Shown here: positions 22,101 to 28,100 of the stretch, piece by piece
Numbering within the stretch: position 1 is the stretch's first letter
How the letters are laid out: each line of letters opens with the position of its first letter
Origin: Candidatus Aminicenantales bacterium
GTDB taxonomy: Bacteria > Acidobacteriota > Aminicenantia > Aminicenantales > Saccharicenantaceae
Length of the DNA: 64,000 bases
Reading direction: 5' to 3'
NCBI GenBank assembly: GCA_050015275.1
Contig: JBEKBS010000006.1
Span: forward strand, 2,733-66,732
Made by a program: the position numbers

Positions 22101-25100
22101 ACGGTGTTCGTGCCGGAGGGGACGCCGGCTGGGGATTATGAGGGTCAGGTCGCCTTATCGTCCGATGAATGGTCCGTCGCAGTCCCTGTCCGTCTCCATG
22201 TCTGGAACTTCACCCTTCCGCGGACGCCGAGCATCCGGTCCTCCTTCGGCCTCATCGCCTCCGACATCAAGGCCTACCACAACCTGAGCACGCGGGAGGA
22301 ATTGGAAAAGGTCTATGACCTCTACATGGAGAACTTCCGGGCCCACCGGGTCGCCCCGACCTCCTTCGGCGATCTTTATCCTCTTAAGGTCACGTTCTCG
22401 GGGATCCTCTGGCAGGGAGGCGAGTTCGTGTCCAACCCCGTCCACGGCGGCCTGCGGGCCCTGAAGATCGTCGACTCGAGCCCGAATGAGGCGGTCGAGG
22501 CGACAAGCGCCGCGCCCATCCCGGTCACCGCCGGGACCCCCTATCGCCTGGCCTGGTGGGCCAGGACGGAAAAAGCGGGGCAGGACTATACGGTCTTCCT
22601 GGAGGCCCTCGACGCGGGCGGCGCGCCCGTCCATCGTCTCAACCTGGTCAAGGTCTTCAAGGGTCAAGAGGAATGGCGGGAAGAGCGGCTGGAGGCGCCG
22701 GCCTTTCCGGCCGGGGTCAAGTCCGTCGTTCTCCACCTCTTCCCGGCCTTTCGCGACGAGACGGGGACTTCGATGGGGACGGCTTATTTCGATGACATTT
22801 CCCTGACGGCCGCGGGCGGGGGCGCGAACCTCGTCCCGGGCGGGGATTTCGAGATGGACATCAACGGGATGGGGGTCGAGACGGATTTCCGGGAATTCGA
22901 CCGGGCCGCCCGCCGCTATATCGGGGAATTCGGCTTCAACTCCTTCGACCTCCCGCTGAAGGGCCTCGGCACGGGCTCTTTCTATTCGCAACAGGAAGGG
23001 ATGTTCGGCGGCTTCCGCCAGGGCACGCCCGAGTACGACCACCTCCTCAGCGCGCACCTGGGGCAGGTCCAGAAGCACCTCGAAGAGAACGGCTGGCTGG
23101 GGAAAGAGTACATTTACTGGTTCGACGAGCCCGACCCCAAGGACTATCCGTTTGTCCGCGCGGGGATGATCAATATCCGGAAGAACGCCTCCAGGCTGAC
23201 CCGGTTCATCACCGAACACCGGCCCGGGCCGGACATCATGGACGTCTCCGAGATCAGCTGCACGATCTTCCATCAGGTCGACCCGGCCGTCGTGGCCAAG
23301 CTCGCGGCGCAGGGGCGCGAGTTCTGGTCCTACCTCTGCACCGCGCCCAAGGGGCCGTGGGTGACGCTCTTCATCGATCATCCCGCCATCAACCTGAGGA
23401 TCTGGCTTTGGATGTCGCAGCGGTTCGGCCTCAAGGGGATCCTGGTCTGGCGGGCCAACTCCTGGTCGAGCCCGACGCTCTTCCCGGCCGGAGAGCTCCA
23501 GAACCCCTGGGAGGACCCGATGTCCTACACCGTGGGCTACGGCGTGCCCTACGGCCAGGTCAATTATTGGGGGAACGGGGACGGCCGGTTCCTCTACCCG
23601 CCGAACCGGCACCCCGGGGAGGACAAGACCAAGTACCTGACCGGCCCGGTGAATTCGATCCGCTGGGAGATCCTGCGGGACGGGATCGAAGACTACGAGT
23701 ATTTCAAGCTGCTGGAAAAAGCCGCCCGGGAAGCCCCGGCGAAGGCGGCCAAGGCCGCCCGCGAGGCGAAGAAGCTCCTCGATTTCCCTGCCTCGCTCTT
23801 CAAGTCCGGCCAGGAATACACCCGGGACCCCAGGGCCCTCCTCGATTACCGGCGGCGGATCGCGGAGGCCATCGAAAGGCTGACGGCGGCGAAATAACCG
23901 GGCCCGGCTCAGCCCCGCATGAGGCCCAGGAAGGCCGACTCGAGCTCGCCCGCTCCTGACGGCCGGAAACGCGACAGGAATTCCGGCAACCCCGAGCGGG
24001 CCACGACCTCTCCCTGCCGGATGACGATGAAATCGTCGCTGAGCTTGACCATCTCCGCCAGCATGTGCGAGCTCAGGAGGATTGCCGCCCCCCTGTCCCG
24101 CGTTTCTGCGAACAGGTCGCGGGCCGTCTTGATGGACGGCGGGTCGAGGGCCGAGAAGGGCTCGTCGACGACGAGGAGATCGGGGACGATGGCCAGGCTC
24201 TGGAGGCAGGCGAACTTCTTGGCGTTTCCCGCGGAATAGGTCCCGGGCCTCCGTTCGAGCAGGGCCGGGTCGAAGAGGATCCGGTCGCAGAGCCTCCGGA
24301 CCTCGGCCGCCCATTTCGCTCCCCCGAGCCCCGACGAGCGGGACGTCAGGTCCAGGAGGGCCTTCCCGCTGAGCCAAGGGAGGAACACGGGATGGTCGGC
24401 GACGTAGCCGATCCGTCCGGCGCCCGTCTCGACCGTGCCCGAATCCTGTTTCAGGAAGCCGAGGATGATCTTCAGCGTCGTCGTTTTTCCCGCCCCATTC
24501 TCGCCGAGCAAAGCGGTCGTCCTGCCTTTTTCGAGCGAAAAGCTCACGCCGCGCACGGCCTGGACGGGGCCGAAGCGCTTTCGAAGCCCGCTCACGCGTA
24601 ACATGTTCTCCTCCCCTACTTCCGGAGCTCGAGCCGCCGGACCAGCGCTTTCTGGAAGAGAAGGAGGATGGCCAGACCCGCGGCGACAGTGAATCCGCCG
24701 CGGAGGAGCCGCGGCGAAACGATCAGGTTCGGAAAAACGGAGGTGAACCCGACGAAGAGGAGCCTGGACCCCAGGCTGGGGAACCGCCCGGTCCCGAGAT
24801 GATCGATGAAACCGGTCCGCGAGGTCGCGGAAAAGAGCAGGCCGATCAGCGCGGCGGCCTGAGCGAGGAGGATGACGACCACGTTGGAACCGGCCTTGAG
24901 GAAGTGGCTCAGCGCCCCGGCGGCGCCGATATAATAGAAACCGGCCAGAAGCCCCAGACCGAATTGCGGGATCGTAAGCGGATCGAACTTGCCGCAGGCG
25001 ACCCCCCAAAGCGCGGTGAGAAAGAACAGGCAGGCCGCATAGATCCCGGCCGCGGCGGCCAGGGCGAAATTCTTCTGCCAGAGGTATCGCCTGAACCCGC

Positions 25101-28100
25101 CCCGGAGAAAGAGGACGTTCTCCAGGGCCCCGCCCGCGACCTCCGTCCCCACCATGTCCTGGGCGGAGACAAGAAAAACATAGGGAAAGAAAAAGAGGAA
25201 GAACTTCATCGCCGTCCCGTAGGTCGTCCGGACGCCGAGGAAGACGAGGAAAGCCGGGAGGAAGGCCGCCAGGGCAAGGTTGAACTTCGAGGCCCGGAGC
25301 TTCAGGCCCGTCAGCCGGACCGTCAGCGGGAAAATATTTTTCTCAAACATCTTTCGAGATCCTCCCGGCGCCGGCCGTAATCTTTGTAAGGGTCGTCGCG
25401 GTAGACCGCCTCTCCTCCCGAGAGCAGGGCCTTGTAGGGAACCATGTCCACCCGGAACTTCCGGAAAAGAACTTTTCTCCTGTCCAGAACGACGGGCAGG
25501 GTCCAGGCGAATTTTTCGAGGAAGGCCCGGAGCGTATCCCTCGGGCCGGAGAAGACGCCGATGACGGCCACGTCGAAGCCGCCCTTCTCGACGAGATATC
25601 TCGCTTCGAAAAGGTCGTCATAGCAAGAGGGGCACTCCGTCGAGAAAAAGACCAGAAGGACGGGGCCTCCGGACGGTCCTGCCGCTTCCTCTAGGGTCAA
25701 GCAAACCCGGACTTCGACGTCGGCCGCTGAAGCGGTCAGGAGGGCCGCCCCGAGGGCGGCAATGACCAGCGCCGCGCTCCGCCGGGTCATCGGACGATCC
25801 TGAAGACCCGGAGCCCGCCCGTCCGGTCCACCGCGTAGATCCGGTCTCCGTCCACGGCCATCCGACCCACATGGGAGGGGAGGCTGACGTGGGCCTCGAG
25901 CCGGCCGGTCGCGTCGAGGACGAAGACCTGGTCTCCGGGTCCCAGGTCTTTCTCCTCGGTGTAGGCGGGGGCCAGGAAGTAGAAACGCTCCCGGTCGAAC
26001 GAGCACTCCCAGCAGAATCCGTCGATCGTCTTCCGCGGTCCCCTGAGCGGAAGGGAGAGGGTCTTGAAGACGTAGCGCCCGTCCACCGGGATCCGGGCCA
26101 GGAGATCTCCGCCGGGGCCGTAGCGGAGGATTGACCGTTCCTGGCAGCGGAAGACCACGAAAAATTCGCCCCGCGGCCCGGCGGCGACCAGGATCATGTT
26201 GCGGAACGCGTCGAACACGGGGTCGCCCGAAAAGCGGGCCGGGAGGGCCTCCCAGATAAGGTCGCCCCTCCCGTTGAAAACGTGGAGGAGCTTCTCCGGG
26301 CCCGACCGTCCGGAAGGGATGTGAGTGACGAGGATCCTGTCCGCCGTGAGGACGAGGGCCCGGTCCGGGGCAAAGGGGACCCCGAAGCTCCGGAGATACC
26401 TCCCCGAAGGGTCGAGGACCTGGATCCTGTGGTTGAGCTTGTCCGCCACGAAGAGCCGTCCTCCGAGGACCGAAACGCCCGAAGGAAAGGAAAATTCCCC
26501 CGGCCCGCGGCCTGTCCGGCCGACCGCGGCCTTGAACCGGCCGTTCTTCAAGAAGATCTTGACGGCGCAATCCTCCGCGTCGGCGACGTAGATATGAGCG
26601 GCGTCGAACGACAGGGATACGGCCAGGGCGAGACAGCCCTCGTCGGGTTTTTCAGCGGCCGAGGTCACGTCCTCAGCGACGTAGCGCCTGACCGAAGGGT
26701 CCTCGACCGCGCCCGCCGCCGAAGGGCGCGGCAAGCCGGCCGCCAGCGCGAGCAGAAAAAGCGAACGCTTCCAAACGGGCTTCATGGTCATCGTCGGCTC
26801 TCCGCGAAGACAATCGTGGAGGCCCCCCGGCGAGGGGGGCCTCCCGCGGCTCAGACCTAGGCGGCCAGGATGCACTTGCCGAGGGCGATGTCGCAGACGG
26901 TCAGGGCGAGGGCGATCTTGGTCCAGGCGGCATCCATGTTGAGCGCCCGCTCGCGGCAGGCCGCGTGGTTGTTGTAGCACTCGTTGACATCACGAGCGCG
27001 CGCGGCGAGCGGATAAAAAACGACCGTGGAAAACAAGATGAGCCCGGCGAGGGCCAGCAGAACCGCTTTTTTCATTGGGGTCTCCTTTCGGCCTCTTCTT
27101 AAGCAATCTTCATGCCACGGCGAAAATTTTCCTAACGCTCACATCCCATTGATTTAAAATATTTTATAGCTGGGCAAGCGGCCCATCGGTCGCGGCCTCC
27201 CGGTCCTCCGCGTCACACTTTGTGCCGCCGTTCTCCATCGGCTTAGATTCCAACAGGTTAGAGGGCTACCGCAGGGCACAATATGTGACATGGTGAGGAT
27301 GGACAAGGAGGGTGAGGGCTATCCCAAAGGCTCCTCGAAGACCGAAGAAGCCCGGCGGGGAGCGAAATCCGGCGCGCCGGCCGGACTATTTCAGAAGCGG
27401 GATCCTGATCCCCTTGTCCTTGGCGCAGGCGATGGCCTCGGGATATCCCGCGTCGGCGTGCCTCGCGACGCCGAGTCCCGGGTCCACGGTCAGGACCCTT
27501 TCGAGCCGCCGGCCCATCATGGCGCTCCCGTCGGCGACGATGACCATGCCCGCGTGAATGGACAGGCCGATCCCCACTCCGCCGCCGTGGTGGACGGAAA
27601 CCCAGGAGGCTCCGCTGACGGCGTTGAGGAGGGCGTTGAGGATGGGCCAGTCGGCGATCGCATCGGACCCGTCGCGCATTCCTTCCGTTTCGCGGTTCGG
27701 GGAGGCCACGGACCCGGCGTCCAGATGGTCCCGGCCGATGACGATGGGGGCCGAGATCTTCCCCTTTCGGACGAGACGGTTGATGACCGCCCCGAACCGG
27801 GCCCTCTCGCCGTAGCCCAGCCAGCAGATCCGCGACGGCAGCCCCTGGAACCTGACTTCGTTCCGGGCCTTCCGGATCCATCGCGCCAGGGCTTCATCCT
27901 CCGGGAACTCCCGGAGGACGGCCTCGTCGGTGGCGTAGATGTCGGCCGGCTTTCCGGAAAGTGCGGCCCAGCGGAACGGGCCCTTGCCGAGACAGAACAG
28001 GGGCCGGATGTATTCCGGAACGAACCCCGGGATTTCGAAGGCGTCGCGGACCCCGGCCTTCTGGGCCTGGCCGCGGATGTTATTCCCGTAGTCGAAGGCC

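Follow-up and report, generated by a model that had tools for sequence, protein, structure and literature searches.

Two kinds of described system come close to the locus studied here, namely disulfide-stapled hairpin peptides that are made with a dedicated thioredoxin (Trx) and proteins that couple a Trx-fold domain to an NHL-repeat beta-propeller (Trx-NHL modules). Among the former, the glycocins sublancin and glycocin F show the cysteine spacing C-x6-C ... C-x6-C in their sequences, and the sublancin cluster runs in the order sunA-sunT-bdbA-sunS-bdbB. Two helices nested by two disulfides have been reported for sublancin, glycocin F, pallidocin, and thermoglycocin (PMC6405829, PMC12139839), with Cys7-30 and Cys14-23 as the disulfides of thermoglycocin (PMC12139839), and glycocin clusters also carry Trx-like proteins and an ABC transporter (PMC6405829). 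Gallocin A, which combines hairpin peptides with a Trx-domain protein, is a second precedent. The bacterial homologues of the Trx-NHL protein NHLRC2 have no conserved neighbours (PMC6107167). Here we describe an operon of five genes on the minus strand (positions 23909-27075) of a 64,000-nucleotide stretch of contig JBEKBS010000006.1 from a Candidatus Aminicenantales bacterium, which is called the window throughout. Its host belongs to the Aminicenantes, an uncultured lineage of soil and sediment bacteria. In the reading that we tentatively favor, though we would give it slightly less than an even chance, the operon is controlled by sigma-54 and encodes a Sec-exported hairpin peptide, an NHL-Trx unit for its oxidative folding, and an ABC-2 pump as an accessory.

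The first gene encodes a peptide precursor whose N-terminus (MKK, a hydrophobic core, and A-R-A) forms a signal peptide of residues 1-27, followed by a mature part of 45 residues with exactly four cysteines (Cys33, 40, 61, and 68; ECYNNHAAC ... CDIALGKC), as a first-pass annotation made from the sequence alone had also read it. Judged by its conservation in sequence databases, this open reading frame (ORF) of 72 amino acids is a real coding gene that defines a family. A word-indexed search returned 35 homologues from Aminicenantes-type metagenomes, all 72-74 amino acids long and 56-99% identical, while a profile search of 1.84 billion representatives gave 35 clusters of the peptide and no other matches. 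The ratio of nonsynonymous to synonymous substitution rates (dN/dS) is 0-0.3 in near pairs, as under purifying selection. Across 42 sequences (31-86% identity), only Cys33, Cys40, Leu58, Cys61, and Cys68 are invariant after Met1, and the spacing of C-x6-C, around 20 residues, and C-x6-C is fixed. In its degree of identity, the mature part follows the neighboring proteins; the idea of a peptide much more conserved than the enzymes holds for the near clade only.

An AlphaFold2 model of the peptide shows the signal helix followed by helices at residues 30-45 and 51-71 (predicted local distance difference test score 92-95), a predicted helical hairpin of the alpha-hairpinin fold in which one helix is polar and the other strongly hydrophobic and whose loop holds no conserved Ser, Thr, or Cys. 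On each helix, the two cysteines are seven residues apart and share one face, so that this arrangement is most naturally read as two nested disulfides (C33-C68 and C40-C61). Foldseek found nothing significant for the model in the PDB (best E = 2), and a Pfam and NCBIfam scan of the small proteins from all locus variants yielded no family. Both the peptide family and the regulatory architecture of the operon described below are undescribed, and no curated family covers the peptide, which agrees with the first-pass statement that the locus matches no nameable system. A type IV pilin was also considered for the peptide and ruled out by the absence of a prepilin motif.

The four genes that follow encode an NHL propeller, a Trx-fold protein, an ABC-2 permease, and an ABC ATPase (Table 1), all of them present where the first-pass annotation had placed them. 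It had further described a strong Shine-Dalgarno sequence in an AT-rich surrounding, and both are there, with a GC content of 0.53-0.57 in the 310-nt interval between hutU and the peptide gene against 0.65-0.70 around it. Its description of the gene junctions as ATGA-type overlaps applies to the NHL/Trx junction alone: the peptide and NHL genes are separated by a 65-nt spacer that contains an 11-bp GC hairpin, the Trx and permease genes overlap by 28 nt, and a gap of 11 nt lies between permease and ATPase genes. This micro-architecture is nearly unchanged in about 25 related loci. Since the same gene order recurs in at least 20 genomes at protein identities as low as 31-40%, the arrangement is by this comparison far beyond chance, and the proposal of one conserved functional unit is upheld. 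Among 23 orthologous loci, which were collected by a search with the NHL protein and a scan of one genome per species, every locus of sufficient length carries the peptide, NHL, and Trx genes in that order, and most add the permease and the ATPase. No paralogues of the operon genes occur elsewhere in the window apart from one unrelated ABC ATPase; this ORF (39329-40348, minus strand; phmmer 8.5e-20 to the operon's ATPase) is the only other ABC ATPase-like one in the window.

Table 1. Features of the operon and its upstream region, followed by sister loci. Positions refer to the window or, for sister loci, to the locus named; A6 is an alignment of eight upstream regions.
Feature	Position	Strand	Remarks
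Candidate enhancer (upstream activating sequence, UAS), site 1	27275..27289		GGCACAATATGTGAC; near-palindrome; putative function
Candidate enhancer (UAS), site 2	27212..27226		Inverted copy; 63 bp from site 1; putative function
Integration host factor (IHF)-like site, tentative	27142..27154	minus	AATCAATGGGATG; one mismatch to WATCAANNNNTTR; ATCA block conserved in A6
Sigma-54 promoter, -24/-12	27102..27117	minus	TGGCATGAAGATTGCT; invariant columns in A6
Shine-Dalgarno sequence	27081..27088	minus	AAAGGAGA; GAAAGGAG invariant in A6
Peptide precursor gene	27075..26857	minus	72 aa; Shine-Dalgarno AAAGGAGA upstream
Stem-loop	26818..26844	minus	11-bp GC-rich stem directly after the peptide stop codon; RNA fold
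NHL/DUF5128 beta-propeller gene	26791..25787	minus	334 aa; signal peptide; periplasmic; six-bladed
Trx-fold gene, TlpA/ResA-like	25790..25323	minus	155 aa; motif C-P-S-C; periplasmic thiol-disulfide oxidoreductase
ABC-2 (type V) exporter permease gene	25350..24616	minus	244 aa; six transmembrane helices
ABC ATPase gene	24604..23909	minus	231 aa; DrrA/NosF/ABCA-like
Sister loci	L032 5236-6852; L033 5335-6969; L034 133-1739		One or two C-x6-C ... C-x6-C ORFs plus NHL gene
Sister loci	L036 70-1294; L037 4071-6081; L062 2361-4072		One or two C-x6-C ... C-x6-C ORFs plus NHL gene

The NHL protein falls among the six-bladed NHL-repeat propellers (PF01436, 1.1e-10, 41.4 bits with a cut-off of 20; DUF5128, PF17170, 2e-8), and its family profile matches NHL structures of the TRIM/Thin type (8e-45, five stretches) as well as the Trx-NHL proteins NHLRC2 (2e-9) and SOQ1 (5e-4), with a similarity to structures 6gc1 and 7djj that is at domain level only. 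Literature on DUF5128, NVEALA, and BF3164 offered nothing useful. The Trx protein matches AhpC-TSA (5e-8, 33.3 bits with a cut-off of 26), aligns to the solved Trx-like structures 2m72 and 3kcm, and combines the Trx fold with a CxxC motif (residues 53-56), a cis-proline, and an export signal, which places it among the TlpA/ResA-type periplasmic oxidoreductases; it scores under the curated cut-offs for StoA and ResA and is neither equivalog. CxxC and cis-Pro118 are invariant in 16 orthologues. The CPSC active site that the first-pass annotation had singled out as unusual turned out not to be a family feature, given that the dipeptide varies among orthologues (PS, AS, AA, HV, VL, PV, GV, PA, HF, FT, AI). 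Single-chain fusions of NHL and Trx occur in two lineages (P0111, P0115, P0116, and P0121, and separately L026). Invariant cysteines are confined, across all operon products, to the four of the peptide and those of the Trx CxxC, in keeping with the periplasmic thiol-redox theme suggested earlier; C75 and C260 of the NHL protein were considered as targets of the Trx protein and ruled out because they vary among orthologues. The co-occurrence of these genes, the NHL-Trx fusions, and the restriction of invariant cysteines to peptide and CxxC make the peptide most likely the thiol-disulfide client of the NHL-Trx unit.

The same proteins are the starting point of the main rival explanation, a periplasmic redox module of the NHLRC2/SOQ1 type in which NHL and Trx proteins would form a split thiol reductase and the hairpin would stay in the periplasm as its client, acting as a redox switch or small chaperone that is induced through sigma-54 by envelope or oxidative stress, with the pump as a stress accessory. 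We consider this unlikely, albeit the most serious of the alternatives. The profile matches to NHLRC2 and SOQ1, the existence of NHL-Trx fusions, the membership of the Trx protein in a usually reducing family, and the action of SOQ1 on a single lumenal client, LCNP, all point in its direction, and NHLRC2 has its Trx active site turned toward the binding face of the propeller, with a protein client being expected (PMC6107167). However, the domains are in reverse order in the window and split between genes, the Trx protein lacks the CC(I/V)NC motif of NHLRC2, and the dipeptide within CxxC is unconstrained.

Regulation of the operon is marked by a sequence, TGGCAY-N5-TTGCT, that is invariant in alignment A6; the pattern TGGCAY-N5-TTGCW matches once in the window where 0.03 matches would be expected. 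The peptide ATG follows the motif at a distance of 41-43 nt in 27 of 29 related loci, three-gene versions included, and with GG at -24, GC at -12, and this fixed distance from the gene the motif is a textbook sigma-54 promoter. A scan for sigma-70 promoters found none. The exact pattern GGCACA-N3-TGTGAC has only two matches in the window, which are the two UAS candidates located around 100 and 165 bp upstream of the promoter and inverted relative to each other. This pair is kept in the near clade (L001, L003, L009, and L010) and is clade-specific; a UAS dyad common to all clades was sought and not found. Between the UAS pair and the promoter lies the IHF-like site, whose consensus is perfect in L004, L011, and L012. 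No ORF for an enhancer-binding protein (GAFTGA and Walker motifs) was found in the 64-kb window, and Rfam had no match for the leader and spacer region. Promoters of the sigma-54 type are also found at stress operons such as psp and zraP, and this resemblance would suit the redox module.

Behind the peptide gene, a hairpin of 10-13 bp is found in nearly all loci, with stem sequences that differ and with a U-run next to it in some cases. It is likely a partial terminator or mRNA stabilizer that sets the ratio of peptide to enzymes, and its conservation leads us to expect a peptide output above that of the enzymes. Such a peptide-boosting element, together with a scaffold like that of glycocins and alpha-hairpinins, fits a product better than the regulator that the redox module would require. 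Another hairpin, the perfect TCCGGCCGGCGCGCCGGA (27368-27385, minus strand), directly follows the hutU stop codon (27386) and is itself followed by TTTCGCT; it probably serves as terminator of hutU and would keep read-through out of the sigma-54 operon.

The last two genes of the operon encode a six-transmembrane-helix permease and a separate ATPase, the composition of ABC-2/type V exporters. The ATPase matches ABC_tran (1.6e-18) and NosF (2.7e-21); DrrA, lantibiotic-protection, GldA, and NosF are the types closest to it, but it scores under every curated cut-off. For the permease, 84 homologues of around 244 amino acids were found, all of them unannotated; some orthologues weakly match ABC2_membrane_2/4, and the window's permease has no match in Pfam or NCBIfam. 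Because its family profile had no match among PDB sequences even at E = 10, a fold comparison was needed, which gave NosY as the best structural match. Neither the permease (244 amino acids) nor the ATPase (231 amino acids) has a peptidase domain. The first-pass annotation had taken the pump for a dedicated peptide exporter and had likened the locus to systems for peptides that are ribosomally synthesized and then post-translationally modified (RiPPs). Neither view held: the pump is not the peptide's dedicated exporter since the peptide has a Sec signal and the ABC pair is missing from L013, L027-L029, and L037 while peptide and NHL persist, and the operon offers no modifying enzyme, double-glycine leader, or C39 peptidase. 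The ABC pair was lost from, or never present in, several lineages. The ABC-less L027-L029 sit in a different genomic context, and in L013 (7005-8781), the Trx gene directly abuts glgC.

The pump also underlies a rival explanation, a NosDFY-like machine that uses it as mechanotransducer for a partner in the periplasm. The NHL propeller would stand in for NosD, and the hairpin, kept reduced by Trx, would replace NosL as a metal or sulfur chaperone that loads a periplasmic target. A likeness to NosDFY-type systems had been raised from the start, and it stands as far as the ABC-2 pump and the structural match to NosY are concerned; NosF is likewise among the matches of the ATPase, the Trx protein is of a reducing type, and the four invariant cysteines are accompanied by a frequently conserved His37. 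Yet the conserved neighborhood contains no NosD (beta-helix), NosL, NosZ, or metalloenzyme, the pump is absent from the five loci named above while the trio persists, His37 is not conserved in distant members, and the i/i+7 spacing of cysteines on facing helices suits structural disulfides rather than a metal site. We regard this explanation as improbable and as less likely than the redox module.

The same ranking below the redox module applies to the notion of a heteromeric periplasmic enzyme in which the hairpin would be a small, cysteine-cross-linked subunit of an NHL-propeller enzyme, and here our expectation is lowest of all. Methylamine dehydrogenase has a small subunit served by MauD, a Trx-like factor, and quinohemoprotein amine dehydrogenase comes with an ABC exporter, so that mau and qhp clusters parallel the locus in joining a propeller, a small cysteine-rich secreted protein, a Trx-like factor, and sometimes an ABC transporter. 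The strict co-occurrence of peptide and NHL, Trx-less sister loci included, is also what an enzyme with two subunits would show. However, Trp51 of the peptide is not conserved outside the near clade, and distant members have I, V, F, K, or T in its place, so a cofactor of the tryptophan tryptophylquinone (TTQ) or cysteine tryptophylquinone (CTQ) type is not possible, and a quinone-cofactor small subunit was ruled out on these grounds. The locus moreover has no MauG, radical-SAM, or flavoprotein maturase, the NHL protein is closest to the non-enzymatic TRIM-type scaffolds and matches the enzyme PAL at only 7e-4, and the hairpin behind the peptide gene implies an excess of peptide, not a 1:1 stoichiometry.

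The five-gene cassette lies between hutU and glgC in around 20 loci, and a comparison of the same genome pairs (window 20341-31371, L001-L026) gave identities of 31-69% for the operon proteins against 81-94% for hutU and 70-94% for glgC; a narrower set of values for the two flanking genes, at the same operon identities, is 81-88% for hutU and 74-80% for glgC. As far as these sequences tell, the locus is a fast-evolving cassette of variable content at a fixed site. This pattern agrees better with a secreted or ecological function than with core housekeeping, and the much higher rate of evolution than in the flanking housekeeping genes, like the change in gene content, counts against the redox module. 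Divergently from hutU, a 687-aa GAF-GGDEF-PilZ protein is encoded on the plus strand (29308-31371) and is syntenic in around 20 genomes at 48-96% identity. Between operon and glgC, a gene for a GH123-family glycoside hydrolase (21642-23897, plus strand) is found in the near clade (the window, L001, L009, and L010) only; L003, L004, L005, and others lack it there. In several long-read loci from metagenome-assembled genomes (MAGs; L030, L031, and L010), hutU, glgC, NHL, and permease genes give several partial matches each and are split across frames, most likely by assembly indels rather than as pseudogenes.

Sister loci in other Aminicenantes (Table 1) carry small ORFs with signal peptides directly upstream of a DUF5128/NHL propeller that is 24-28% identical to the one in the window; the combination of two peptides with an NHL gene is seen in L032-L036 and L062. 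Where two such peptides are encoded, the longer one has a Gly/Ala-rich hydrophobic insert of around 30 residues in its loop, and these pairs with one Gly-rich hydrophobic loop resemble two-peptide bacteriocins. By position, L037 is homologous to the window operon: it lies at the same site downstream of hutU and has a sigma-54 motif at -43, two tandem twin-C-x6-C proteins, and no pump, and it encodes an NHL protein 27% identical to the window's and possibly a divergent Trx (a weak match, hhalign E 0.003). In three sister loci (L033 3743-4966, L032 3608-4912, and L062 802-2028), the two twin-C-x6-C peptide genes are preceded on their own strand by a conserved gene of around 407 codons for a GT2-family glycosyltransferase (Glycos_transf_2, 2e-6), located 330-370 nt upstream; the encoded proteins are 77-79% identical to each other. 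Glycocins need a GT2, but the gene may equally reflect inherited synteny or encode a compatible-solute synthase; no homologue of it was found in the 64-kb window. Tandem paralogues of the DUF5128/NHL propeller are seen in Aminicenantes and related MAGs, with five copies in L040, three in L041, and further cases in L083 and L086.

Taken in sequence, the reading that we favor would begin with an enhancer-binding protein switching on the sigma-54 promoter, after which the hairpin behind the peptide gene would stop or stabilize part of the transcripts so that the peptide outnumbers the enzymes. The precursor would be exported by Sec and cut by signal peptidase after A-R-A, the NHL propeller would hold the unfolded peptide in the periplasm, and the CxxC protein, docked on the propeller, would install or proofread the two nested disulfides. 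The folded peptide would then share the (C-x6-C)2 scaffold of glycocin bacteriocins, and as the end product, it would most likely act on envelopes or membranes in the manner of a bacteriocin or a signal. The ABC-2 pump, translationally coupled to the Trx protein and lost in several lineages, may rid the inner membrane of the hydrophobic peptide, either in self-protection or to release it. By analogy, and because of its scaffold, the company of Trx and ABC proteins, the two-peptide variants, and its rapid divergence, the peptide is probably envelope-active, in a putative bacteriocin-like or signaling role.

Several points weigh against this interpretation. The operon has no glycosyltransferase, double-glycine leader, or C39 peptidase, and hhalign gave a probability below 1% for the peptide family profile with sublancin and glycocin F. 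TlpA-like proteins are usually reductants, no DsbB- or DsbD-like partner is encoded in the operon, and we know of no precedent for an NHL propeller in peptide maturation. No outer-membrane route is encoded, and variants without the ABC pair would lack the proposed self-protection. The order GGDEF-hutU-operon-glgC in around 20 loci speaks for vertical inheritance at one chromosomal site, unlike typical mobile bacteriocin islands and as the redox module would have it. That the disulfides pair as described, that the signal peptide is cut after A-R-A, and that NHL protein and peptide make contact at all are points that we infer.

The first-pass interpretation is thus borne out in part, and what it had missed are the sigma-54 promoter, the hairpin behind the peptide gene, the NHL-Trx fusions, and the glycocin-like scaffold. 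A further-reaching claim, which we hold to be doubtful, is that the NHL and Trx proteins are a split bacterial version of the NHLRC2/SOQ1 module with the hairpin as its natural client and founding member of a new Sec-exported peptide family. If true, this would be the first Trx-NHL module written in one operon with its substrate, and the peptides would be a new Gram-negative hairpin family that is Sec-exported, disulfide-stapled, and sigma-54-regulated, with a glycocin-like scaffold and no glycosylation. It would add a family of stapled helical-hairpin peptides from an uncultured, environmentally abundant phylum and a maturation logic of NHL propeller and Trx for which known bacteriocin or RiPP systems offer no example. 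With a candidate client encoded next to the enzyme, the operon could be a tractable bacterial model for Trx-NHL function, a question that bears on NHLRC2 (the human FINCA disease gene) and SOQ1 (plant photoprotection). Testable predictions on regulation follow from the sigma-54 promoter with its fixed position and from the hairpin inside the operon, and a peptide of 45 residues is small enough for direct synthesis and testing.

Compared with known systems, the operon shares with glycocins a predicted two-helix core with C-x6-C twice and a putatively nested disulfide pairing, dedicated Trx-like proteins and an ABC transporter, and a putatively abundant peptide end product. It is not a glycocin because the glycosyltransferase, double-glycine leader, and C39 exporter of these systems are lacking: neither the operon nor its flanks contain a SunS-like GT2, the loop offers no conserved Ser, Thr, or Cys for glycosylation, the leader is of the Sec type and not double-glycine or GK, and sequence homology is found neither by hhalign nor in Pfam or NCBIfam. 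An ABC-2 pump, the added NHL propeller, a Gram-negative host, and sigma-54 regulation set it further apart. Gallocin peptides differ in having one disulfide and a double-glycine leader, and plant alpha-hairpinins are seed peptides with C-x3-C pairs. The pump is NosY/PmtD-like yet outside any Nos context, since no NosD (a CASH beta-helix), NosL lipoprotein, or nosZ occurs in the window locus or at least 20 related loci, and in contrast to NosDFY(L), it is dispensable in several lineages and accompanied by an NHL propeller as periplasmic partner. PmtCD clears phenol-soluble modulins, and a comparable role of the window's pump is suggested by analogy; PmtABCD and LanFEG pumps differ in that the peptide here has a Sec signal and no basket domain is seen. 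With the pspA-E and zraP operons, the locus shares a sigma-54 promoter, a candidate upstream enhancer, an IHF-like site, and a small envelope protein, although the peptide has no homology to PspA or ZraP. NHLRC2 and SOQ1 likewise couple a CxxC-bearing Trx-fold domain to a six-bladed NHL propeller and are thought to act on a protein client. They are defined by an N-terminal Trx domain with CC(I/V)NC followed by NHL in one chain, whereas the window has NHL before Trx, usually in separate genes, and no C-terminal domain; the Aminicenantes fusions recreate the single chain, and, as a further difference, the operon encodes a candidate client alongside its NHL-Trx unit.

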